Positions 2,488 through 12,610 of a stretch of 12,610 nt of DNA are shown here, in pieces. The notes beneath the pieces are model-generated. The model was not told the origin of the DNA. It was given only the letters and a program-made list of their open reading frames with translations, and searched no databases. Origin of the DNA: a virus (taxonomy: Duplodnaviria > Heunggongvirae > Uroviricota > Caudoviricetes); the IMG/VR virus record IMGVR_UViG_2630968712_000015; one strand, 5' to 3'. Made by a program: the position numbers and the translations under genes. Positions within the stretch are counted from its first letter, which is position 1; each line of letters starts with the position of its first letter.

Positions 2488-3041
2488 TATGGCATGTTAA
2501 CGCCTCCTATATACTCGACATCGCAGGGCTTGATTCTATTGACACTCCCGCACGCATATTCAGCCCCGCACACAGAAAAAGAGAACTAGACGTAAGTGCG
2601 AATTATTATTTTTTTCTCGATTATACAAAACATGCCTTCCACGAAATATCCGTAGAGGATTTGTACATAACAAGGCCGTGGGTTGAATATATCGGCGAAT
2701 GCATGGACAAAAACCAGCCCATATACAGCCCCGAAACTCGCATAAACTTACAAGCTCTTTATGAGGATGTTAAAAACGTTGAGCACGGAAACAGAGAGCG
2801 CCACAGGCAAAAGCGCGAAATTTGCCTCTTGGCGTTGATTTATGTGAAGCGGCACTACCCAGAAGAGTGTAAAGGGAAGAACGGGAAGGAAACCAACGAA
2901 GCATGGGCGAACGCCACAATAAACCACTGGGCGCTTTTGGGGGGCGGCTATGATGAGCCATCCATAGATTACCTGAAGAAACTCATAGCCGACGCAGACA
3001 GAACACCGGAAGAACGCACCACGGCAGGGAAAAAAAGGTGA
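2488..3041 (+). pseudogene. 3' fragment of the IS1-interrupted gene; the reconstructed intact product is about 282 aa of unknown function
   Basis: Frame continuity with 1416..1710 after removing IS1 and one TSD copy. The upstream part of the six-frame ORF 2304..3041 is read-through across the IS1 end, not native coding sequence. Confidence 0.65.
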
Positions 3042-3069
3042 TAGTAAATTTTACTATCACGATAGTAAA
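3040..3069. promoter_or_regulatory. Operator-like site: three alternating 9-bp half-sites GATAGTAAA / TTTACTATC / GATAGTAAA, about 85 bp upstream of alpA
   Basis: Perfect 19-bp palindrome 3040-3058 (GATAGTAAA-T-TTTACTATC) followed by a third direct copy of GATAGTAAA at 3061-3069, in the intergenic region before the AlpA-like gene. Confidence 0.4.
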
Positions 3070-3153
3070 AAATACGATCATTCCTTTTTGAGCGTGCACG
3101 CCATTAAATCCCCGTAACGAAGCAACAACTATCGCTAAGAGGTTACGGGAATC

Positions 3154-3357
3154 ATGAACATCGACACTATCCCTACAAAAGGCTATATCAGACGCTTCCG
3201 CCTGGCTGAATTGCTGGGCGTTAGTGTATCCACCATCGACCGTAAAGTAAGAAACGGTTCACTACCACGTCCGGTAAAGCTGGGAGAAAAAATAACTGCG
3301 TTTGATGCGGTTGAGATTCACAACTGGCTGGCAGAACGCCGCGGGAAGGTGGCCTGA
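3154..3357 (+). CDS. alpA: AlpA/Vis-family small HTH transcriptional regulator (prophage excisionase-like)
   Basis: 67 aa; ...FRLAELLGVSVSTIDRKVRNGSLPRPVKLGEKITAFDAVEIHNWL... matches the AlpA-family signature; SD AAGAGG upstream of the ATG; sits beside the integrase as in P4-like elements. Confidence 0.85.
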   Translation: MNIDTIPTKGYIRRFRLAELLGVSVSTIDRKVRNGSLPRPVKLGEKITAFDAVEIHNWLAERRGKVA

Positions 3358-3788
3358 TGGAAAAGAAAAACCGCCCATTACAGGCGGCTAATTCAGATAT
3401 TCGCGTATCTGATGTTACGCCCCTTACAAAATCCCTTCAAGCACCAAAGCGCACACCGAAAAAGCATCGTGCCAGAGTCTATATGCTGCGTACTGGTATA
3501 GAGGGATGGACAGAAAATGACATTCTGCGTTATTGCCGCCTTTCGTCTGGAAGGAACTACGCCAGCGAGTTAGAGCGCAGGCTTGATATTCAGCTTGAGC
3601 GTATAGACGAAAAGAACCCCGACGGGATAGGGCCACATTTACGCTATCGCTTTACCGGGCGCGGTGACGTTCTAAAAGTTATTCGGCTTGTGAACCATAA
3701 CGCCGACGCTGGCGGCTATCAGGGACTTTCTCAGCCTGAAATTGCCGACATTCTCAATCTATACCCGGACAATCTCACCGCCGCATAA
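3357..3788 (+). CDS. Hypothetical protein (143 aa), start overlaps the alpA stop (TGATG)
   Basis: ORF with SD-like GGAAGGTGG upstream of the ATG; start overlaps the alpA stop by 1 nt; no recognisable motif. Confidence 0.55.
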   Translation: MEKKNRPLQAANSDIRVSDVTPLTKSLQAPKRTPKKHRARVYMLRTGIEGWTENDILRYCRLSSGRNYASELERRLDIQLERIDEKNPDGIGPHLRYRFTGRGDVLKVIRLVNHNADAGGYQGLSQPEIADILNLYPDNLTAA

Positions 3789-3801
3789 CGGAGCCGAAAA
3801 T

Positions 3802-4419
3802 ATGACTATCGAAAAAAGCCGATTCAGTTCGGGGGCCGCCCCGCAACCCAACGTTAACACGGGAGTAATTAACGGCAACGACTTTGCCGCTATTGTTCCC
3901 GTTATTGCCGGACGCATTGGCGGGCGTGAAGCCAATATTGTGAGCGCTAAGGCGTTGCATAAAGCGCTGGGGGTGGGCCGCGACTTTACTAACTGGATTA
4001 AAGGCCGAATTGACCAGTACGGTTTTATTGCCGGAACCGATTTTATCCGTGTTGAAAATTTGAGCACGCCAAAACGGGCGAGCGCAAAAACTCGCCAGCA
4101 AATAGAGCATGATTACCTGCTATCGCTGGATATGGCTAAAGAAGTGGCAATGGTTGAACGCAACGAGCAGGGCCGCGCTATCCGCCGTTATTTCATCCAG
4201 TGCGAGGAAGAATTACAGCGTAGCGTGCCTGAAATCGCCGCCCGCTATCGTCGCCAGCTAAAAGCCCGTCTCAGTGCCGCAAACAACTTTAAGCCAATGT
4301 GCGATGCGCTGAATATGGCCCGTGCCGAGATGGGCAAAACGACGCAGCAGCGCCACTACAGCAACGAGAGCAACATGATCGCCCGTATCGTGCTGGGTGG
4401 CATGACGGCGAAGCAGTGA
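3802..4419 (+). CDS. AntA/AntB-like phage antirepressor domain protein (205 aa from ATG 3802; the six-frame ORF opens at 3742)
   Basis: Motif ...ALHKALGVGRDFTNWIKGRIDQYGFIAGTDF...DYLLSLDMAKEVAMVERNEQGRAIRRYFIQCEE... resembles the AntA antirepressor domain as recalled; GGAG SD 9 nt upstream of ATG 3802. Confidence 0.7.
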   Translation: MTIEKSRFSSGAAPQPNVNTGVINGNDFAAIVPVIAGRIGGREANIVSAKALHKALGVGRDFTNWIKGRIDQYGFIAGTDFIRVENLSTPKRASAKTRQQIEHDYLLSLDMAKEVAMVERNEQGRAIRRYFIQCEEELQRSVPEIAARYRRQLKARLSAANNFKPMCDALNMARAEMGKTTQQRHYSNESNMIARIVLGGMTAKQ

Positions 4420-4458
4420 GCGCAGGCAAATGGCATTACTGGCGAACCACGGGACAGC

Positions 4459-4611
4459 ATGAACGCAGCACAGCTTGAACACCTCGCCTATCTCGAAAGC
4501 ACCAATATCACGTTAATTGATATGGGCATGGAATATGAGCAGCGCAAAGGAGAACTCACCCGCCTGTCGCAACGCTGGCTCGCTAAACGTCTGGAGGTAA
4601 ACCATGCGTAA
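4459..4611 (+). CDS. Small ORF (50 aa), in frame with and directly downstream of the antA-like stop codon; either an independent small gene or the severed C-terminus of the antA-like gene
   Basis: ATG 4459 to TAA 4611; same frame as 3802..4419 with no stop between the TGA at 4417-4419 and this ORF; its 3' end overlaps the next gene in an ATGCGTAA junction. Confidence 0.3.
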   Translation: MNAAQLEHLAYLESTNITLIDMGMEYEQRKGELTRLSQRWLAKRLEVNHA

Positions 4612-4786
4612 CCACAATCCGATGCCGGGAAGCCGTTACAAGGATTCGCACGGGGCTGTAGTGACCGTTGAGCGCGTCGAGCATAACCGAGTGACCTTTT
4701 ACCGCGAGGGCTATCAGTCGCCATGTGTTCAGCCTTTGGAGAGATTCGTTAATGAGTTCGTGGAGGTGCGCCGTGATACTGAATGA
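4604..4786 (+). CDS. Hypothetical small protein (60 aa)
   Basis: ORF preceded by GGAGG SD (4593-4597); start embedded in the AACCATGCGTAA junction; protein-like composition. Confidence 0.45.
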   Translation: MRNHNPMPGSRYKDSHGAVVTVERVEHNRVTFYREGYQSPCVQPLERFVNEFVEVRRDTE

Positions 4787-5480
4787 ACCTGCCGCCCAGA
4801 AAGAAGCCTTTAATCTGGCTGGCCTGTTAACAAATGTTAACCCTTACAACCTTATAAAACCTGATATTGATACCGCAGCGCCCGGAGTTCCGTTACCAGT
4901 ACGCGAGGCGCTTACCCTCAACAAAAAGATGGTGAGCCGTGCACAGGAAAAACTCTTAAAGGGTTACGGTTTTATCTGGTATGACCACCTAGCAGAGAAA
5001 AGCTGTTATAGTTCAAGCGTTGCTGCAAAATCAGCAACCGGGCGTGGAAACCCGAACACACTCAGGGCGACACAGACGCCGAAAGCGTTTTTTTTTGTGT
5101 CCGATCACTACGCACATCAAATCAGCGGCCTAGTCCGTACTGTATCAATGGTGGCGTTAGTGGGGCTACGTTCGCGTAGGCCGGTTTCCTTTGTGTCCGG
5201 TATTTCCACCCCTGCTAACGTCACCGCCATTTCAGAGCGTGGAAACTCAGGCGGTGACTCCTTAAACACAAAGGAGGCTGCCGCTATGCTGGCTACTACC
5301 CCTACCCAAAAACCGCAATTTATCTGGATTATCGCCGCAGTTCGCCGCGATTGCCCGACAATTACCGCCAAAATTCATCATATTGCTGCCGAGTCTGAAC
5401 GCGATGCTCGCCGTTCTCTGGTGCGCGATCACGTCTGCTTTTTTGCTGGTCGTATCCGCATGGAGGTGGCACATGATTAA
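4773..5480 (+). CDS. Hypothetical ORF; coding status uncertain. Possible GTG start 4773 (ATG alternatives at 4752 or 4725); a strong internal SD+ATG at 5286 suggests the real gene may be only 5286..5480 (64 aa).
   Basis: GGAGGTG at 4762-4768 precedes GTG 4773; the first ~75 codons look protein-like, but 5018-5285 is hairpin-rich and uses rare codons (CTA, AGG). AAGGAGG at 5271-5277 sits 8 nt before in-frame ATG 5286. Confidence 0.35.
   Translation: MILNEPAAQKEAFNLAGLLTNVNPYNLIKPDIDTAAPGVPLPVREALTLNKKMVSRAQEKLLKGYGFIWYDHLAEKSCYSSSVAAKSATGRGNPNTLRATQTPKAFFFVSDHYAHQISGLVRTVSMVALVGLRSRRPVSFVSGISTPANVTAISERGNSGGDSLNTKEAAAMLATTPTQKPQFIWIIAAVRRDCPTITAKIHHIAAESERDARRSLVRDHVCFFAGRIRMEVAHD
5075..5096 (+). 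terminator. Possible intrinsic terminator or attenuator: short GC stem-loop followed by a run of nine T
   Basis: GACGC-CGAAA-GCGTT followed by T9 (5088-5096). The stem is only 4-5 bp, so this is weak. Confidence 0.25.
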
Positions 5481-5691
5481 AACCTACGATGTGCATATGG
5501 ATCCCCTCGAACGCACAAGCCAGATCATCACACTGACAGAAGTGATTAATGACATTCTGGTGAGCAACTCTCCCTCACGAGACGAAAAACTGAAGGCGTT
5601 ACTCGCGATATTGGATCTCGCCGTTCGTGACGTTCATTTCCTGCTGGAAGGTGGCGAAATGTCAGGAAAACGGGGGGCAACCAATGAATAA
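5473..5691 (+). CDS. Hypothetical small protein (72 aa), first gene of a translationally coupled chain
   Basis: GGAGGTG SD 5 nt upstream of ATG 5473; start overlaps the preceding ORF's stop. Confidence 0.5.
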   Translation: MIKTYDVHMDPLERTSQIITLTEVINDILVSNSPSRDEKLKALLAILDLAVRDVHFLLEGGEMSGKRGATNE

Positions 5692-5878
5692 CTCAATTAA
5701 TACCCCTCGCCTTACGTCCGCACTTCAATTAATCGAGCAAACAGCGGCTGTCCTGGTTGCTGTCAGTCTTTCGGCTGAAGAAATGGACGCTGCTGATGTC
5801 GTGGATGCGATTAAAGCGTGCTCATCTTTGGTTAACGATGCCCGTGCAGAGCTGGTAATTCTTGGGGGTGAAAAATGA
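5684..5878 (+). CDS. Hypothetical small protein (64 aa; alternative GTG start at 5627)
   Basis: ATG 5684 overlaps the upstream stop (ATGAATAA); G-rich SD-like stretch upstream. Confidence 0.45.
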   Translation: MNNSINTPRLTSALQLIEQTAAVLVAVSLSAEEMDAADVVDAIKACSSLVNDARAELVILGGEK

Positions 5879-6959: not shown

Positions 6960-7301
6960 ATGATTACTAAAAATTTCCGACTGAATGCGCTGGCGAATAA
7001 GTATGCGGCAGCACTGTATAACCACATTACTTCCACCAGCGGCGGGGACTATTTCATGATTGATGCGGACGGCCTCGCCGTCCGTGTGGAAATCGTCAAT
7101 GGAGTAAAAGGCGTTCGCAGCCTGATTGATAGCTACGCACTGGCAGCCATGAAAGTGCGCTACCCGCAGTGGGAAATCGTGGGGATCGAGCTTCTTGATC
7201 GTTGCGTCACTAAGGACGGATTGACTGACATCGGGCGCGAGATATGGCAAAGCATGATTAATGATATGGGCGCGACCGTGGCAGGAGGCAACCATGCGTA
7301 A
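6960..7301 (+). CDS. Hypothetical protein (113 aa) immediately upstream of the primase, translationally coupled to it
   Basis: GAGGGG SD before ATG 6960; stop overlaps the primase start (ATGCGTAA). Confidence 0.55.
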   Translation: MITKNFRLNALANKYAAALYNHITSTSGGDYFMIDADGLAVRVEIVNGVKGVRSLIDSYALAAMKVRYPQWEIVGIELLDRCVTKDGLTDIGREIWQSMINDMGATVAGGNHA

Positions 7302-10053
7302 TATCGACCTTATCCGCGAAGTGACCAGCGCCGCAGCAGGGCGCTGGCCTTATGTGCTGGCTGAATTGTCTATCGACGTGCCTGATTCATCGCGCCGCCA
7401 TTCTCCATGCCCTGCATGTGGTGGAAAAGACCGTTTCAGATTCGACGACAACGGGCGCGGTAGCTTTATCTGCAACCAGTGTGGCGCTGGTGACGGGCTG
7501 GATTTAATCAAGCGGGTAAACAACTGCGACACCACGGAGGCGGCACAGCTTGCCGCTGACGTGCTGGGTATTGATTACCGGGCAGCGCAAACCGACCCGG
7601 CGGCAGCGAGCCATAGAAGAGAGCAACTGGAAGCTGACCGCCAGCAGCGTGAGCAGGAGCGCCAGAAACAGGCAGCAGAGGACGCAGAGCAGCGAAGGGC
7701 TACGTTTGCCCATCTGTATGCCGGAATGCGCCAGAGTGCCACACAGGGCGAATCTGATTACCTGCAATCAAAAGGGCTGACCGGGTTTAACTATCCGGTT
7801 ATGCCGGATGGTTCGTTATTGCTGGAGCTGGTGGACGAATCCGGCGCAGTGGCAGCAGCGCAAACCATTACACCGCAGGGAGAGAAGCGACTCCTGACAG
7901 GTTCAGCAAAGCGCGGGGCATATCACGCCGTAAACGCGCCAGAATCGCCGCAGAGCGTTTTAATTGCCGAGGGGCTGGCGACGGCCCTTTCAGTTCACCT
8001 GATGCGCCCGGACGCGCTGGCAGTGGCAGCAATTGACGCGGGCAACCTGCTACCCGTTGCCGAAGTGATGCGCCGGATATATCCCGCCACGCAGATTATC
8101 ATTGCCGCAGATAACGACCACCAGCAGGACGACCAGGCGAACACGGGCAAAGATGCCGCAGAGAAAGCCGCCTTATCCGTGGCTGGCTGGGTGGCGCTGC
8201 CGCCGACAGACTACAAAGCCGACTGGGACGACTACCGCCAGCAAAACGGGCTGGAAGTCGCTACGGCTGCGTTTAACGATTCGATGTACCAGATTCAAGG
8301 GGAAGCCGTGAAACCGCGATTGCAAGCCATTGAGGGCGGTAAAACTGACCATCCAGAGAAAGATCCACTAAAACCCCACATTGAGAGCCGCAAAGATAGC
8401 GTTTTCTGGGTAACGCCGAAGGTGGACAAGGAAAGCGGGGAGATCGTCAACGCTGAAAGCTGGTTATGTTCCCCGTTGGAGGTTATCGGCACGGGACGCG
8501 ACGACAAAGATCAGTATCTTATTATCTCATGGCTGGCATTCGGTGCAGGCATACCGACAACAGCGGCTATCCCGCTGGCTGATATTGGCGAGCGTGAAGG
8601 CTGGCGCACCCTGAAAGCTGGTGGGGTTAACGTCACGACCAAAAGCAGTTTACGGGCGATCCTTGCCGACTGGCTACAGCGGAGCGGCTCGCGTGAATTG
8701 TGGCGCGTTGCTCATGCTACAGGCTGGCAGTGCGGGGCATACATCATGCCGGACGGGGAAATCATCGGCACACCTGAGCGGCCTGTTTTGTTCAGCGGGC
8801 GCAGTTCAGCCGCTGCCGGGTATACCGTAGCAGGAACGCCGGAAAGCTGGCGCAACAGTGTCGCGCGGCTGGCATACGGCAACTACGCGATGATGACAGG
8901 CATTGCCGCAGCACTGGCAGCGCCATTAATCGGGGTGGCAGAGCGTGACGGATTCGGGATTCATTTTTATGAGCAATCGAGCGCCGGGAAAACAACCACG
9001 CAGAACGTGGCTAGCAGTCTATACGGGAACCCTGATGCCTTGCGCCTGACGTGGTACGGGACGGCGCTGGGGATGATAAACGAGGCCGCCGCCCACAATG
9101 ACGGACTGATGCCGCTGGATGAAGTCGGACAGGGCGCAGACCCGATAAGCGTTTCTCAGTCTGCCTATGCCCTGTTTAACGGCGTAGGGAAATTGCAGGG
9201 CGCGAAAGAAGGCGGAAATCGGGATCTAAAACGCTGGCGTACCGTGGCAATCAGCACCGGGGAAATGGATTTAGAAACGTTCATTGCCTCCGCAGGACGC
9301 AAGACAAAAGCGGGGCAACTGGTGCGCCTGCTGAATATCCCGTTAAGTAAGGCGGTGCGCTTTCATGAGCACCAGACAGGGAAAGACCATGCAGACGCAT
9401 TAAAATCCGCGTGGCAGAGCAATCACGGCGCTGCCGGGCGGGAGTGGATCAGATGGCTTGCAGGCCACCAGCAGCAGGCCATTGATACCGTTCGTGACTG
9501 TGAAGCCCGCTGGCGCAGTCTTATTCCTGCCGACTATGGGGAACAGGTTCACCGTGTAGGGGCAAGGTTCGCCATTCTGGAGGCTGCTTTACTGCTGGGT
9601 GGCGTGGTTACTGGCTGGGATGATCAAACGTGCCGTGATGCGATACAGCACAGCTACAATGCGTGGTTGCGTGAGTTCGGCACGGGGAACAAAGAGCACC
9701 AGCAGATTATTGAGCAGACGGAGGCGTTTTTGAATGCCTATGGGCTGAGTCGATTCGCGCCGCTGGGTTATGACCCGCGCGATTTACCCATCCGTGATTT
9801 AGCCGGGTACAGGAAGAAGGGGAACCACGACGGCGACCCGATAATTTTCTACACCTTCCCGGCAGCGTTTGAGCAGGAGATTGCAAAGGGCTTCAATACC
9901 AAACAGTTTGCCGAAGTTCTAAAGAATGCAGGAATGCTTACACCACCAACGAGCGGGCGAGGCTATCAGGGGCGAGTAAGGGAGGATGGGCGACAGATTC
10001 GCGTCTATGTACTCAATTTCATGGCAGAGGAAAGCAGCCAGCCAGAAGAATAA
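7294..10053 (+). CDS. Primase-helicase (P4 alpha-like replication protein): N-terminal primase zinc ribbon, Toprim domain, C-terminal P-loop NTPase/helicase domain
   Basis: Perfect AGGAGG SD before ATG 7294; CPACGGKDRFRFDDNGRGSFICNQCG zinc ribbon; Toprim-like AEGLATALS...IIIAADNDH; Walker A SSAGKTT and Walker B LMPLDEVG; 919 aa. Confidence 0.9.
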   Translation: MRNIDLIREVTSAAAGRWPYVLAELSIDVPDSSRRHSPCPACGGKDRFRFDDNGRGSFICNQCGAGDGLDLIKRVNNCDTTEAAQLAADVLGIDYRAAQTDPAAASHRREQLEADRQQREQERQKQAAEDAEQRRATFAHLYAGMRQSATQGESDYLQSKGLTGFNYPVMPDGSLLLELVDESGAVAAAQTITPQGEKRLLTGSAKRGAYHAVNAPESPQSVLIAEGLATALSVHLMRPDALAVAAIDAGNLLPVAEVMRRIYPATQIIIAADNDHQQDDQANTGKDAAEKAALSVAGWVALPPTDYKADWDDYRQQNGLEVATAAFNDSMYQIQGEAVKPRLQAIEGGKTDHPEKDPLKPHIESRKDSVFWVTPKVDKESGEIVNAESWLCSPLEVIGTGRDDKDQYLIISWLAFGAGIPTTAAIPLADIGEREGWRTLKAGGVNVTTKSSLRAILADWLQRSGSRELWRVAHATGWQCGAYIMPDGEIIGTPERPVLFSGRSSAAAGYTVAGTPESWRNSVARLAYGNYAMMTGIAAALAAPLIGVAERDGFGIHFYEQSSAGKTTTQNVASSLYGNPDALRLTWYGTALGMINEAAAHNDGLMPLDEVGQGADPISVSQSAYALFNGVGKLQGAKEGGNRDLKRWRTVAISTGEMDLETFIASAGRKTKAGQLVRLLNIPLSKAVRFHEHQTGKDHADALKSAWQSNHGAAGREWIRWLAGHQQQAIDTVRDCEARWRSLIPADYGEQVHRVGARFAILEAALLLGGVVTGWDDQTCRDAIQHSYNAWLREFGTGNKEHQQIIEQTEAFLNAYGLSRFAPLGYDPRDLPIRDLAGYRKKGNHDGDPIIFYTFPAAFEQEIAKGFNTKQFAEVLKNAGMLTPPTSGRGYQGRVREDGRQIRVYVLNFMAEESSQPEE

Positions 10054-10343: not shown

Positions 10344-10778
10344 ATGACAGCACAAATTTCAGCATACGGGCGGCTGGTGGCAGATCCCCAGACCCGCACC
10401 ACAACGAACGGTAACAACATGGCTATGGCGCGGCTGGCGGTGTCTCTCCCCTGTAATGCGGCAGAGGCGGGAGAGTCAACCTTCTGGCTGGGCGTTATTG
10501 CTTTTGGGAAGCAGGCCGATGCGCTGGCAAAGCACCAGAAAGGCGACCTTGTGAGCGTGGCAGGCAATATGCAACTCAACCAGTGGACAGGGCAGGACGG
10601 CGGTACACAGCAGGGGTATCAGGTAGTAGCCGACAGTGTGATCAGCGCCAGAACGGTACGCCCCGGCGGGAAGGCAGGACAGCGGGGACAGGCAACGGAC
10701 GCGCTGAGACGTGCGCAGCAGCCATCCCGTGATGAATACGACCAAAGCCCACCATTCGACGATGAAACGCCATTCTGA
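10344..10778 (+). CDS. ssb: Single-stranded DNA-binding protein (SSB-like, 144 aa) with acidic C-terminal tail
   Basis: GAGGGG SD before the ATG; OB-fold-like pattern (GRLVADPQ...NG...A.ARLAV...FW..VIAFGKQA...KGD.V.V.G.....W); C-terminal ...PPFDDETPF resembles the SSB acidic tip (DDDIPF in E. coli SSB). Confidence 0.7.
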   Translation: MTAQISAYGRLVADPQTRTTTNGNNMAMARLAVSLPCNAAEAGESTFWLGVIAFGKQADALAKHQKGDLVSVAGNMQLNQWTGQDGGTQQGYQVVADSVISARTVRPGGKAGQRGQATDALRRAQQPSRDEYDQSPPFDDETPF

Positions 10779-10788
10779 GAGGGAAGAT

Positions 10789-11340
10789 ATGAGTACGCAA
10801 CCCATCATTATTGAGTTCGGCAGCTATCGCTGGCCCAGACATCTTGCAATACATGAAGCAGGTCATGCGATAGCCGCATGGTTTTTCGGCATACAGGAGG
10901 TAGAAATTGCGTTATCGGGTAATAACCGAGTGGCAAAAACCTACCTTAGCGGCGATGTTGATGAATGTGGAGCTGTCGCGGTATGGCACGCCAACTATCC
11001 ACGGAATGTGGCTGAGGTTAAGTCTTACACCCTCTCGAATGATGACACCAGGTTACGTCTGATAGACCAGGTATGCCGGGCTATGGTTATCTCTCTGGCT
11101 GGTATCGTCGCGCAATCACGCTATACGGGGGATGATATTAACGCACTGATGGAAACGTCCGGGAAAGCAGACATGAAAAATGTTCGTGATTTATCAGAGG
11201 TATACCGGGTGGCTGGTGGGGAGGATGCTGATATACAGAGAATATCCCTTTCCCGTGCTGAGGCGCTGATTGCCCTGAAATGGTGGGATGTAGACTGGCC
11301 CCCTGAATCTCCAGACAACCAGTATCACTTAAATAAGTGA
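10789..11340 (+). CDS. Stand-alone FtsH-like (peptidase M41-type) zinc metalloprotease-domain protein; the native 3' end is replaced by IS2 from nt 11291 (last 16 codons and the stop are IS2-encoded)
   Basis: True start ATG 10789 after the ssb stop (the six-frame ORF start at 10711 lies inside ssb). [13 protein letters not shown] matches the FtsH HEAGH zinc-binding motif, with downstream regions paralleling the FtsH protease domain; no AAA+ domain upstream. Confidence 0.55.
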
Positions 11341-11381
11341 TAGTCTTAATACTAGTTTTTAGACTAGTCATTGGAGTACAG

Positions 11382-11747
11382 ATGATTGATGTCTTAGGGC
11401 CGGAGAAACGCAGACGGCGTACCACACAGGAAAAGATCGCAATTGTTCAGCAGAGCTTTGAACCGGGGATGACGGTCTCCCTCGTTGCCCGGCAACATGG
11501 TGTAGCAGCCAGCCAGTTATTTCTCTGGCGTAAGCAATACCAGGAAGGAAGTCTTACTGCTGTGGCCGCCGGAGAACAGGTTGTTCCTGCCTCTGAACTT
11601 GCTGCCGCCATGAAGCAGATTAAAGAACTCCAGCGCCTGCTCGGCAAGAAAACGATGGAAAATGAACTCCTCAAAGAAGCCGTTGAATATGGACGGGCAA
11701 AAAAGTGGATAGCGCACGCGCCCTTATTGCCCGGGGATGGGGAGTAA
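11382..11747 (+). CDS. insC: IS2 InsC (OrfA, HTH transposase component), 121 aa from ATG 11382
   Basis: [56 protein letters not shown]... matches IS2 OrfA; GGAG SD upstream. The six-frame track start at 11337 is a GTG inside the IS2 terminal repeat. Confidence 0.9.
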
Positions 11748-12610
11748 GCTTAGTCAGCCGTTGTCTCCGGGTGTCGCGTGCGCAGTTGCACGTCATTCTC
11801 AGACGAACCGATGACTGGATGGATGGCCGCCGCAGTCGTCACACTGATGATACGGATGTGCTTCTCCGTATACACCATGTTATCGGAGAGCTGCCCACGT
11901 ATGGTTATCGTCGGGTATGGGCGCTGCTTCGCAGACAGGCAGAACTTGATGGTATGCCTGCGATCAATGCCAAACGTGTTTACCGGATCATGCGCCAGAA
12001 TGCCCTGTTGCTTGAGCGAAAACCTGCTGTACCACCATCGAAACGGGCACATACAGGCAGAGTGGCCGTGAAAGAAAGCAATCAGCGATGATGCTCTGAC
12101 GGGTTCGAGTTCTGCTGTGATAACGGAGAGAGACTGCGTGTCACGTTCGCGCTGGACTGCTGTGATCGTGAGGCACTGCACTGGGCGGTGACTACCGGCG
12201 GCTTCAACAGTGAAACAGTACAGGACGTCATGCTGGGAGCGGTGGAACGCCGCTTCGGCAACGATCTTCCGTCGTCTCCAGTGGAGTGGCTGACGGATAA
12301 TGGTTCATGCTACCGGGCTAATGAAACACGCCAGTTCGCCCGGATGTTGGGACTTGAACCGAAGAACACGGCGGTGCGGAGTCCGGAGAGTAACGGAATA
12401 GCAGAGAGCTTCGTGAAAACGATAAAGCGTGACTACATCAGTATCATGCCCAAACCAGACGGGTTAACGGCAGCAAAGAACCTTGCAGAGGCGTTCGAGC
12501 ATTATAACGAATGGCATCCGCATAGTGCGCTGGGTTATCGCTCGCCACGGGAATATCTGCGGCAGCGGGCTTGTAATGGGTTAAGTGATAACAGATGTCT
12601 GGAAATATAG
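11705..12610 (+). pseudogene. insD: IS2 InsD (OrfB, DDE transposase catalytic domain) interrupted by an in-frame TGA at 12089-12091 where a Trp codon is expected
   Basis: The two six-frame ORFs 11705..12091 and 12188..12610 are in the same frame with no other stop between them; [25 protein letters not shown] versus ESNQRWCSDGFEF in IS2 InsD as recalled. Confidence 0.75.

Follow-up and report, generated by a model that had tools for sequence, protein, structure and literature searches.

Architecture of the 4773-5480 region

The window analysed here, that is, the whole stretch of 12,610 nucleotides, carries the gene content of a putative phage satellite, comprising int, alpA, ant, a DUF4222 gene, the cassette described below, small ORFs, and genes for a primase and an SSB. 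The ant gene, encoding an AntA/AntB-domain protein, maps at 3742-4611, upstream of the cassette, and is interrupted by a nonsense codon (4417-4419), which may weaken translational coupling from upstream. The cassette is embedded in a long ORF of 235 aa (4773-5480, on the + strand, as are all the cassette features), whose GTG start is preceded by the Shine-Dalgarno (SD) sequence GGAGG at 4761-4765 and overlaps the stop codon of the DUF4222 gene (4784-4786). This ORF contains a predicted promoter, two small RNAs, their target sites and a nested, in-frame icd/kil-like gene. Its similarity to P4 Eta (E = 3e-22) runs from residue 79 through the C-terminus, and residue 79 is exactly where the promoter/RNA region begins. 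The N-terminal part (4862-5005) bears no relation to its counterpart even in the 96%-identical relative L001, where PGAP calls the equivalent ORF.

A constitutive promoter, with an extended -10 TGtTATAGT and a poor -35, is predicted at 5004-5012, the positional equivalent of P4 PLE, and transcription is predicted to start near 5019. A consensus sigma-70 scan of 2900-5700 returned no site, and the internal promoter was seen only by comparing homologues. Specifically, a -10-like hexamer ends 7 nt before the start of the isrK model in 19/19 elements compared, P4 included, and the -35 reads TTGCCx or TTGATT in most of them. The presence of this conserved promoter-like element 7 nt upstream speaks for an independent transcription of the isrK-like RNA.

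The segment at 5019-5096 is a candidate IsrK/seqA-like small RNA carrying the targets a1 and b1. The Rfam family isrK (RF01394) matches at 5019-5095, T9 terminator included, with 70.1 bits (gathering score, GA, 50), and c4-a1b1 (RF03163) matches at 5006-5058 with 54.2 bits (GA 46.7); both matches lie above gathering, and the segment shows two 5' hairpins and an intrinsic terminator. Hairpin 1 (5019-5038) is formed by the inverted repeat GTTGCTG-CAAAAT-CAGCAAC, while the loop of hairpin 2 (5040-5054) carries b1, GUGGAAA (5044-5050). An imperfect a1 target, ACACUCAGG, follows at about 5057-5066. The terminator scan placed a hairpin at 5074-5090, with its T9 run extending to 5096, and GACGCCGAAAGCG plus T9 (5075-5096) is the sole + strand terminator-like site in the region scanned.

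The second RNA, of the C4/CI antisense type, maps at 5144-5231, where Rfam C4 (RF01695) matches over model positions 1-87 of 87 with 80.3 bits (GA 45, E = 7.5e-15). A 17-bp closing stem (5149-5165 with 5210-5226) unites two small hairpins into one RNA: hairpin 1 (5166-5179), CTACG-TTCG-CGTAG, with a UUCG loop, and hairpin 2 (5180-5201), which includes a CCGG...CCGG hairpin (5181-5200) and exposes the a' loop UUUCCUUUGUGU (5185-5196). The single-stranded b' segment (5202-5209) contains UUUCCAC (5203-5209), and a CCA lies at the 3' end (5227-5229), as it does after the C4 stem in 35/41 elements. This tRNA-like stem with its CCA is consistent with RNase P release of C4 from a longer precursor, as in the P1 and P4 systems; a tRNA scan was negative. 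Where transcription starts, where the RNAs are processed and how stable either of them is are predictions.

The exposed a' and b' segments are complementary to a2 and b2 at the downstream ribosome-binding site, and to a1 and b1 upstream, a1 being imperfect here. Target a2, ACACAAAGGA (5266-5275), is the exact reverse complement of TCCTTTGTGT (5187-5196) in the a' loop, and overlaps the SD AAGGAGG (5270-5276) ahead of the ATG at 5286; the a':a2 pairing can be extended to 5282, giving a duplex of -23.2 kcal/mol. Target b2, GUGGAAA (5239-5245), sits in the loop of a hairpin (5220-5258) whose 9-bp stem is made of GTCACCGCC (5220-5228) and its exact reverse complement GGCGGTGAC (5250-5258). As for additional C4 targets in the window, ACAAAGG and its 10-mer were found only at the SD, and two more copies of GTGGAAA (7086 and 7421) are within chance expectation for a 7-mer.

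The gene starting at this ATG (5286-5480, 64 aa) encodes an Icd/Kil-like protein, which matches NCBIfam phage_ICD_like with 71.7 bits (cut-off 25), is 44% identical to P4 Kil (E = 4e-11) and of equal size, and is 27% identical to Icd of the P1-like RCS47. Counting from the predicted internal promoter, this gene is translated first, and its SD is the seqC/a2 target, as expected of a P4-type region. At its stop codon it overlaps the next ORF, which starts at 5473, and it heads a run of overlapping ORFs leading to the primase (7261-10053) and the SSB (10344-10778), the latter two assigned by Pfam.

An earlier note on this DNA had listed the inverted repeat, the terminator-like hairpin, the tetraloop, CCGG and 9-bp hairpins, and the complementarity between the a' loop and the SD overlap; all of its strings were confirmed at its coordinates, and the Rfam scan that it proposed returned the three families reported above. 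It had missed the C4 closing stem, the second specificity pair (b' against the GUGGAAA copies at b1 and b2), the second isrK hairpin and the promoter.

Covariation and antisense specificity

The covariation set comprised 39-42 homologous cassettes from P4, P1-like plasmids, lambdoid phages and satellites of many Enterobacterales; the P1-like RCS47 and D6 were found by nucleotide similarity. The isrK-like RNA precedes C4, with the order and orientation seen in P4, in 17/17 loci first fetched and in 23/26 loci from other genera. Neither Rfam nor nhmmer profiles built from our own alignments gave an RNA match in the loci L039, L040 and L042.

Folding and covariation, also suggested in the earlier note, showed that the stems are conserved with compensatory changes across homologues. 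Taken alone, the minimum free energy (MFE) fold of C4 is the Rfam structure (-38.9 kcal/mol, z = -5.4, with 0/200 shuffles as good). Among 39 homologues, 100% of 1053 cells are paired in this fold, with compensatory changes at 18/27 pairs, while slid controls reach at most 51%; covariation thus backs the long closing stem around two hairpins that defines RF01695. The isrK-like hairpins are 91.6% paired in 39 sequences, with 8/18 pairs compensatory, and the folding energy of the isrK-like segment by itself is not significant (z = -1.7). The b2 hairpin is 96.9% paired, with 5/9 pairs compensatory (39 sequences), and the hairpin at 5216-5262 has an energy of -18.8 kcal/mol (z = -4.0).

Of the 5' strand of the b2 hairpin (5220-5228), 7 nt (5220-5226) also belong to the 3' side of the C4 closing stem, and therefore the b2 hairpin and the complete closing stem are mutually exclusive on one molecule. 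Folded as a whole (5019-5290), the transcript at its MFE forms the b2 hairpin and pairs 5180-5196 with the SD region in cis.

The complementarities between antisense and target segments were evaluated across elements. The a':a2 and b':b2 pairings are 92.1% paired, compared to 62% in shuffles, and 14/17 pairs have changed on both sides in a compensatory manner. Cognate duplexes are more stable than non-cognate ones in all four interactions, the cognate and non-cognate energies being -14.4 and -6.5 kcal/mol (a':a2), -9.7 and -6.7, -13.4 and -7.1, and -14.1 and -8.4 kcal/mol (permutation p ≤ 1e-4 each). In the window, the b':b1 and a':a1 duplexes have energies of -14.2 and -15.1 kcal/mol, respectively; the a1 of this element has two central mismatches, and when computed in standard windows its a':a1 duplex reaches -10.2 kcal/mol, compared to the cognate mean of -13.4. 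Specificity changes take the form of multi-nucleotide blocks which co-vary with distant target sites. Among 41 distinct cassettes we count at least 34 a'/b' combinations, a diversity to be expected if they are immunity specificities. In the window, a' CCUUUGUGU and b' UUUCCAC probably set the immunity specificity of the satellite.

The earlier note had also pointed to a 10-mer, TTTGTGTCCG, occurring twice. Both copies are present, at 5094 and 5190, and they are the only two within the window; as a functional pair, this direct repeat was rejected as a coincidence, being found only in the cassette of the window and in L001. In addition, the post-terminator motif TGTGTC is retained in 21/41 elements while the C4 loop sequence changes. 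According to our own estimate, one given 10-nt direct or inverted match arises by chance within 268 nt with a probability of about 0.03; therefore, the strength of the case comes from homology, with Rfam E values from 1e-11 to 7.5e-15 over the three families.

Relation to known systems and proposed switch

All together, these data lead us to read this region, with a probability of roughly 0.85, as the RNA immunity cassette of an integrated PICI/P4-like phage satellite, homologous to PLE-seqA-CI-seqC-kil of P4, which is nested in eta, and to a1b1-c4-a2b2-icd of P1/P7. The parts of this reading that were observed directly are the RNAs, their folds, the co-varying complementarities, the conserved promoter position and the Icd/Kil and Eta homologies. 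The earlier proposal of an RNA-based immunity or regulatory region resembling P4 CI is thus supported by the Rfam matches, the covariation and the Kil and Eta homologies. It had called the region analogous to that of P4; the likeness holds, but the relation is one of homology rather than analogy, because P4 carries the same isrK-like to C4 pair, its Kil is similar and its Eta aligns from residue 79. This kind of cassette is already described in P4, P1/P7, Gifsy-1 and PICIs, and the present locus adds nothing new in kind. In such phage and satellite switches, a small antisense RNA (C4/CI) binds two targets and hides the ribosome-binding site of a small toxic gene lying in front of the replication genes.

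P4 offers the closest comparison. PMC10111431 reports that CI lies inside eta, that the promoter is internal to eta and that Kil is a truncated Eta, while IsrK and C4 correspond to seqA and CI (PMC3632133), IsrK being termed a structural homologue of seqA (PMC4825925). In both P4 and the window the two RNAs have the same order and orientation, the promoter is equally far upstream, the b1/b'/b2 and a1/a'/a2 complementarities are present, the b2 hairpin is built on the 3' strand of C4, and a Kil homologue of equal size is found. In addition, a long Eta-like ORF starts upstream of the internal promoter, in frame with the ATG at 5286 and coupled to the preceding gene, and replication genes including a primase lie downstream. 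The two differ in specificity (P4 a' CCUGUGAA and b' UUCUCAC, versus the a' and b' given above), in the spacer between the isrK-like RNA and C4 (107 nt in P4, 48 nt in the window) and in the unrelated Eta N-terminus; moreover, the window ORF follows ant and DUF4222 genes instead of following vis directly, and no epsilon, sid, delta or psu genes were seen in the window. A P2-type TGT-N12-ACA late promoter was not found upstream of alpA, the three matches in the window comparing with 2.6 expected by chance. The element looks like a Gram-negative PICI, with an EcCIMP1-like gene set, rather than a P4-like satellite.

The immI region of P1/P7 shares with the window a C4 family RNA of the same fold, an a2 target overlapping the SD of an Icd-like gene, and upstream a1/b1 hairpins, which give the c4-a1b1 match. 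In P1, Ant synthesis is repressed by c4 RNA (PMC8546580), and the controlled genes are icd and ant, an antirepressor; in the window they would be icd and replication genes, since icd is followed by small ORFs, primase and SSB, and ant precedes the cassette. Furthermore, the Icd proteins are merely 27% identical, and no reading frame crosses the RNAs in P1-like elements, whose isrK-to-C4 distance of 123 nt is out of frame. The Gifsy-1 isrK-orf45 (STnc1160)-anrP region similarly has an isrK-family sRNA with its own promoter and a leaky terminator, a processed complementary RNA downstream, and a small ORF that must be translated for the genes beyond it to be expressed (PMC4825925). There, however, the short RNA is an activator of translation, and an antirepressor and an antiterminator are produced, while replication genes lie downstream in the window. 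In the lambdoid phage mEp460 the same cassette is embedded in a Rha/antirepressor gene. Finally, the PICI/HE-PICI "Bro zone" (Mageeney et al. 2023, PMC10111431) shows, in the excerpted text, C4 and isrK matches of Gram-negative PICIs inside Bro-network or Phage_ASH genes, and the same Integration - Bro - Replication layout as the window; as far as those excerpts go there is no material difference, and the window is another instance; they do not include covariation, frame or codon analyses of the kind given here.

The cassette probably is a switch silencing the replication operon of the satellite. In the mechanism that we propose, the promoter inside the long ORF (-10 at 5007-5012) would start constitutive transcription near 5019, and most transcripts would end at the T9 terminator, giving an IsrK/seqA-like RNA of about 77 nt. 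Read-through transcripts would carry the C4/CI RNA (5144-5231), which would be excised by RNase P and 3' trimming. The a' loop and single-stranded b' of mature C4 would then pair with b2/a2 on nascent read-through transcripts, as well as with b1/a1 of the IsrK-like leader. Pairing at a2 would bury the SD of the icd/kil-like gene, and the same pairing could occur in cis on unprocessed transcripts. With the first gene untranslated, Rho-dependent polarity would end transcription of the downstream operon (small ORFs, primase, SSB) early, the satellite would remain quiescent, and repression would extend to incoming elements sharing its a'/b' specificity.

Relief would come from upstream. In PICIs, alpA is the helper-induced master regulator (PMC11773190), and in P4, as summarised in PMC10111431, eta is translated, its translation from the late promoter preventing termination. 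A helper phage would induce an alpA-driven upstream transcript, on which ribosomes would enter the long Eta-like ORF, coupled to the DUF4222 gene, and by crossing the terminator, C4 and the target sites would unfold them, making the transcript insensitive to immunity. For RNA processing, Rho dependence, translation override and alpA control of the upstream transcript we infer from P4 and P1 work. That CI-type termination would be relieved here by eta translation has indirect support from the frame-preserving indels described below and from the downstream overlapping ORFs.

Reading frame, RNA constraint and alternative readings

The earlier note had considered the region probably noncoding. This holds in part: in the RNA region codon periodicity is absent, whereas most non-P1 relatives preserve the overlying ORF, uninterrupted and in frame. 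The opposite view, that the region simply encodes an "Ash family" or long "Icd-like" protein and the hairpins are incidental, draws on the ORF open from 4773 to 5480, on the Pfam match to Phage_ASH (PF10554, 84.6 bits, cut-off 26, at aa 79-182, that is nt 5007-5318), on several matching PHROG "transcriptional repressor" families, on a CDS annotated by PGAP in hundreds of E. coli genomes, and on a frame open through both RNAs in 38/42 elements, with frame-preserving indels. Against it, codon-position entropies are 0.84 / 0.85 / 0.80 in C4 and 0.68 / 0.83 / 0.75 in isrK, with no third-position excess in 5019-5285, while the icd gene has the coding signature 0.76 / 0.68 / 1.19 (37 homologues); the codon-periodic conservation without stems that the earlier note named as contrary to its proposal was therefore not found. 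Across the isrK-C4 region, none of the three frames is free of stops in the three P1-like cassettes, and in the Mu-like L005 a stop interrupts the Ash frame, yet all four keep the RNAs; conversely, L039 from Tatumella lacks the "Ash" part, with other sequence in place of the cassette, but retains icd and the N-terminal motif. All variable C4 stem positions change compensatorily with full pairing, the specificity blocks co-vary with distant targets, and some conserved upstream "protein" motifs are just translated promoter. On the strength of the entropies, the stops and the covariation, a protein-only explanation was rejected as extremely improbable.

Two further alternatives concern the way in which the RNAs act. 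The a':SD pairing and the b2 hairpin might be confined in their action to the read-through transcript that carries them, which would be a self-repressed mRNA or an attenuator, with no stable trans-acting C4 being made, in line with the MFE fold of 5019-5290, in which these elements form instead of the complete C4 stem, and with the compensatory changes in the alternative hairpin. However, the complete C4 fold is conserved even better, down to those closing-stem pairs which would be broken in the cis form; the tRNA-like stem and CCA, needed for RNase P release in P1/P4, are widely kept; a1/b1 co-vary too, which SD masking in cis does not require; and the RNA acts in trans in P1 and P4 (established knowledge; PMC8546580). 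We thus regard a purely cis-acting leader as improbable. A less improbable, though still unlikely, alternative is that the short RNA (5019-5096) turns on the first ORF, titrating C4 or opening an inactive mRNA fold in trans, as an anti-antisense activator and not a passive decoy or target. The isrK match with its own terminator fits this idea, as does the cis-repressed fold of the full-length transcript, with a' paired to the SD; b1/a1 being complementary to b'/a', C4 must be contested between the short RNA and the targets on the mRNA. In Gifsy-1, the target on which the short IsrK activates orf45-anrP translation is its own read-through mRNA, and STnc1160, a processed RNA with complementarity to IsrK, lies downstream (PMC4825925). 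On the other hand, STnc1160 co-expression in Gifsy-1 does not behave as a simple antagonist (PMC4825925), the homologous P4 seqA is needed to establish immunity, that is repression, as cited in PMC3632133, and nothing in the sequence separates activation from repression. Such activation is best seen as a layer added to C4 repression and not as an alternative to it.

Returning to the immunity cassette, RNA sequence without coding constraint was observed alongside a conserved open frame. Spacer lengths were compared in the set obtained by blastn, a search without reading-frame bias: in non-P1 elements the isrK-to-C4 distances are 92, 101, 125, 128, 140 and 185, all equal to 2 mod 3, while in P1-like elements the frame is broken and stops are carried. 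Spacer indels come in six to seven sizes, none of which shifts the frame. Because the long ORF served as the tblastn query that found the loci L018-L043, their open frames are partly a selection effect. A column-sampling null gave a probability of about 0.72 × 0.35, or about 0.25, for an open Ash frame by chance, a value which is no more than suggestive, since the sequences are related and few rows are gap-free.

We see about an even chance that two constraints act on the same ~280 nt, RNA structure and antisense pairing fixing the sequence, and selection for uninterrupted translation fixing no more than the frame and its freedom from stops. This would apply to almost every satellite or lambdoid version, and not to P1-type plasmid prophages. 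If so, the override of immunity by translating through the cassette, for which P4 eta is the only known case, would represent a general and ancestral design feature, and the alternative b2 hairpin with the cis a':SD fold would be a conformation resolved by ribosomes or processing. Likewise, Pfam "Ash" and the PHROG families matched only in the translation of the RNA region (for example phrog_995, phrog_821 and phrog_3960) would be shadows of the RNA cassette, and surveys using PF10554 as a P4 epsilon marker would be detecting immunity RNAs.

Over the stretch that PF10554 matches there is no codon periodicity indicating a protein under amino-acid selection, and this family does not correspond to the Ash/epsilon derepression protein of P4: in P4 it matches Eta aa 37-161, which is seqA-CI-seqC DNA, and epsilon matches PF25738 instead. 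Phage_ASH is in effect the RNA cassette in translated form, its matches marking that cassette and not P4 epsilon, and the 235-aa "Icd-like/Ash" CDS is to be read as an internal promoter, two small RNA genes, their targets and a nested 64-aa Icd/Kil-like gene. DNA matching the cassette is present in 927/5426 complete E. coli genomes, and the a'/b' sequences, read directly from such data, could serve to assign satellites and prophages to predicted immunity groups.

RNA genes, predicted promoter and sequence features upstream of icd

An earlier note on the sequence had described 5018-5285 as a hairpin-rich, probably noncoding region and a candidate regulatory or immunity RNA comparable to that of phage P4. 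An Rfam scan at curated thresholds returned three adjacent + strand matches in this portion of the window, namely c4-a1b1 (RF03163; 5006-5058, 54.2 bits), isrK (RF01394; 5019-5095, 70.1 bits) and the C4 antisense RNA (RF01695; 5144-5231, 80.3 bits, E = 7.5e-15). IsrK has been equated with seqA of the satellite phage P4, and C4 with P4 CI and c4 of P1/P7 (PMC3632133; PMC4825925; PMC10111431).

Sequence reading and string checks located all the elements that the note had listed, each where the note had placed it, and assigned most of them to these RNAs. Specifically, the 7-bp inverted repeat (5019-5038) and the hairpin followed by T9 (5075-5096) are the first and the last hairpin, the latter a terminator, of the isrK-like RNA, while CTACG-TTCG-CGTAG (5166-5179) and the CCGG hairpin (5181-5200) lie inside C4 and are closed by a 17-bp stem (5149-5165 with 5210-5226) that had been missed. 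Folded alone, C4 adopts the Rfam family shape (-38.9 kcal/mol, z = -5.4). Also present were the perfect 9-bp stem (5220-5228 with 5250-5258), both copies of TTTGTGTCCG and, at 5187-5196, TCCTTTGTGT as the exact complement of ACACAAAGGA (5266-5275), which overlaps the AAGGAGG Shine-Dalgarno sequence (SD) of ATG 5286. By our own simple counting, one 10-nt match within 268 nt has a chance of about 0.03 and is only modestly unlikely, so that the question of chance was decided by homology and folding; the duplication of TTTGTGTCCG is coincidental and represents no functional pair. Right after the T-run of the isrK terminator, TGTGTC or a near variant (TGTATC, TGTGCC) appears in most of 41 cassettes, with TGTGTC proper in 21 of them (5097-5102 in the window, and homologous positions) whatever the immunity specificity.

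In 19/19 of the elements first compared, a hexamer resembling a -10 box ends 7 nt upstream of where the isrK model begins, and most of these also carry a -35 TTGCCx or TTGATT. As P4 is among them, the predicted promoter corresponds in position to PLE, the internal promoter of P4. The window has an extended -10, TGtTATAGT (5004-5012), with a poor -35, which accounts for a strict promoter scan finding nothing.

Covariation of stems and antisense targets

Of 5426 complete E. coli genomes, 927 contain similar DNA, either chromosomal or on P1-like plasmids, and it is also present in P1-like, D6 and lambdoid phages. We compared a first set of 16 loci plus P4 and a second set of 26 loci from other Enterobacterales genera; by Rfam, the isrK-like RNA is followed by C4, in unchanged order and strand, in 17/17 loci of the first set, and the pair is present in 23/26 of the second. 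Of the resulting 42 cassettes 39-41 are distinct, and pairing statistics were taken from a 39-sequence alignment. In this alignment, all 1053 cells of the C4 fold (100%) are paired, with changes on both sides in 18 of 27 pairs, compared with at most 51% pairing in register-shifted controls. The isrK-like hairpins (91.6% paired, 8/18 pairs compensatory) and the 9-bp stem (96.9% paired, 5/9 compensatory) are also maintained by compensation.

In addition, every element shows a three-way sequence match, by which the C4 determinants a' and b' co-vary with upstream targets in the isrK-like RNA (a1, b1) and with targets preceding icd (a2, b2), the gene nested in frame at the end of the long open reading frame (ORF). 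Specifically, b1 is the loop of isrK hairpin 2, b' the unpaired segment that follows C4 hairpin 2 and b2 the loop of the 9-bp-stem hairpin; a' is the loop of C4 hairpin 2, a1 the stretch before the isrK terminator and a2 the bases directly 5' of GGAGG. The b set reads GUGGAAA/UUUCCAC in the window, GUGAGAA/UUCUCAC in P4 and UUUGCAC/GUGCAAA in locus L006. The a':a2 and b':b2 pairings together are 92.1% paired versus 62% when shuffled, with both-side changes at 14/17 positions. Cognate duplexes are more stable than non-cognate ones for a':a2 (-14.4 versus -6.5 kcal/mol), b':b2 (-9.7 versus -6.7), a':a1 (-13.4 versus -7.1) and b':b1 (-14.1 versus -8.4), each at a permutation p ≤ 1e-4. In the window a1 is imperfect, and the a':a2 duplex can be extended across the whole SD (-23.2 kcal/mol). 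In the minimum free energy fold of the unprocessed transcript, a' pairs with the SD in cis and the b2 hairpin forms at the cost of the lower C4 stem, an alternative conformation that is itself conserved.

The 41 cassettes hold no fewer than 34 different a'/b' combinations, which is what immunity specificities would be expected to show. In some elements a further C4 copy lies within a second Icd-like gene, or two complete isrK-C4 cassettes of differing specificity stand in tandem (L003, 2133-2220; L015, 2041-2128; L014, 1146-1334 and 1515-1697). In lambdoid phages the cassette lies within a Rha-family regulator gene, in its N-terminal extension, as in mEp460 (1021-2172; Phage_ASH at aa 117-213, Phage_pRha at aa 223-308), where an internal ATG at the icd position would yield a 181-aa Rha protein under C4 control.

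RNA constraint within a conserved open frame

The long ORF (4773-5480) starts at a GTG preceded by GGAGG and overlaps the stop of the DUF4222 gene. From its residue 79 to its end, that is, from the promoter and RNA region onward, it aligns with P4 Eta, its N-terminus being unrelated. The gene at 5286-5480 encodes 64 aa; its product scores 71.7 bits against NCBIfam phage_ICD_like and shares 44% identity with P4 Kil and 27% with Icd of the P1-like phage RCS47.

Mean column entropies at codon positions 1/2/3 are 0.76/0.68/1.19 in icd, 0.84/0.85/0.80 in C4, 0.68/0.83/0.75 in the isrK-like RNA and 0.87/0.92/1.02 in the spacer to the ATG. A clear third-position excess is thus confined to icd, the spacer showing at most a slight trend. 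Codon-periodic conservation without the stems would, according to the note, have refuted an RNA reading; the opposite was observed, the stems being kept and periodicity being absent from the RNAs. Moreover, no frame is free of stops across the isrK-C4 region in the three P1-like cassettes, and in Tatumella (L039) the RNA segment is wholly replaced by unrelated DNA, with icd and a short N-terminal motif retained. We therefore reject a protein-only reading and conclude that 5019-5285 has its sequence constrained at the RNA level.

The description as probably noncoding needs correction, however: the region, though constrained as RNA, lies inside an ORF whose openness is itself conserved. In 38 of 42 cassettes no stop interrupts the long-ORF frame across the two RNAs, and in 30 this frame is also that of the icd ATG; for an open frame, column sampling as a null yields about 0.72 × 0.35. 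Among the blastn-derived loci, a set without frame bias, the isrK-to-C4 distances of non-P1 elements take six values (92, 101, 125, 128, 140 and 185 nt), all 2 mod 3, the P1-like distance being 123 nt. Frame conservation fits the account of P4 in PMC10111431. There, the start of eta lies upstream of the internal promoter, the late transcript from upstream is the only one from which Eta is made, and this translation prevents termination; the internal promoter gives the truncated product Kil. The coupling of the long ORF with the DUF4222 gene is the same arrangement as in P4 eta.

In eight loci (L011, L030, L035-L038, L041 and L043) the spacer from C4 to the icd ATG is one nt out of frame, and the long ORF runs 196-1060 nt past that ATG in the +1 frame. 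In L038 it ends shortly after the icd stop, in the remaining seven far downstream of it. In the window, too, the +1 frame of icd lacks stops along most of its extent when inspected by eye. This may point to selection against any stop that ribosomes coming from upstream would meet.

Some 30 codons at the start of the long ORF (4773-4868; motif about 4815-4868, …FNLAGLLTNVNPYNLIKPDI…) are conserved in the window, its 96%-identical relative L001, L006 and L018, whereas the following 4862-5005 is unrelated between close relatives. The DNA of the FNLAGLLTNVNPYNLIKPDI motif contains GTTAAC twice and is kept even in the Tatumella terrea locus (1501-1580), which lacks the RNA cassette; the conserved part may be a real peptide or a further nucleic-acid site. 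There, the replacing DNA (1780-2140) precedes a retained icd-like gene and carries two TTGTAATTACAA palindromes, which look like a putative protein-repressor operator, i.e. a swap of the immunity module.

Proposed regulation and the surrounding element

Rfam matches, covariation, and Kil and Eta homology bear out a P4-like RNA-based immunity region, and the cassette is another instance of an already described system. If the features of the window and its homologues are read together with the established P4 and P1 systems, the internal promoter would produce a short IsrK/seqA-like RNA and, by read-through, a precursor from which C4 would be released; C4 has a tRNA-like stem followed by CCA, the latter kept in 35 of 41 elements. 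Pairing of b' and a' with b2 and a2 would mask the icd SD and shut the overlapping replication operon by polarity, presumably Rho-dependent, and C4 would also pair with b1/a1 on the leader. Helper-induced upstream transcription, probably through alpA, the PICI master regulator (PMC11773190), could then bring ribosomes through the Eta-like ORF and override immunity. IsrK-type activation, as in Gifsy-1, is possible as an added layer. A leader acting purely in cis is unlikely: the a':SD pairing is predicted within the transcript, but the complete C4 fold is perfectly conserved and the upstream targets co-vary.

The window shares the Integration–Bro–Replication layout described for Gram-negative PICIs in PMC10111431. 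A tyrosine integrase gene (1-1320) is directly followed by an int-alpA RNA (RF02996; 1329-1395, 60.6 bits; also in L001, 3565-3631), after which come an IS1 transposase fragment on the - strand (1726-2229) and AlpA (3154-3357). The AntA/AntB antirepressor gene (3802-4611 region) is listed as two ORFs (3742-4419 and 4459-4611) because of an in-frame stop at 4417-4419 (KQW to KQ*), compared with an intact 277-aa gene in L001; the stop could weaken translational coupling from alpA to the Eta-like ORF. The DUF4222 gene (4604-4786) and the long ORF precede a chain of small overlapping ORFs, a DUF927/Toprim primase (7261-10053) and an SSB gene (10344-10778). With the IS1 fragment between int and alpA and IS3-family ORFs (HTH_Tnp_1, HTH_21, rve; 11337-12610, + strand) at the window end, insertion sequences appear to have interrupted or truncated the satellite.

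Of the by-products, the most useful relates to Pfam PF10554 'Phage_ASH', which matches the translated RNA cassette (5007-5318 in the window; 8330-8704 in P4, i.e. Eta aa 37-161). P4 epsilon, the Ash/derepression protein, is instead a match to PF25738. PF10554 served as epsilon marker in a published survey of P4-like satellites (PMC8628076), so that the survey probably scored the immunity RNA cassette. The translated promoter-seqA-CI-seqC cassette is also matched by several PHROG 'transcriptional repressor' families.
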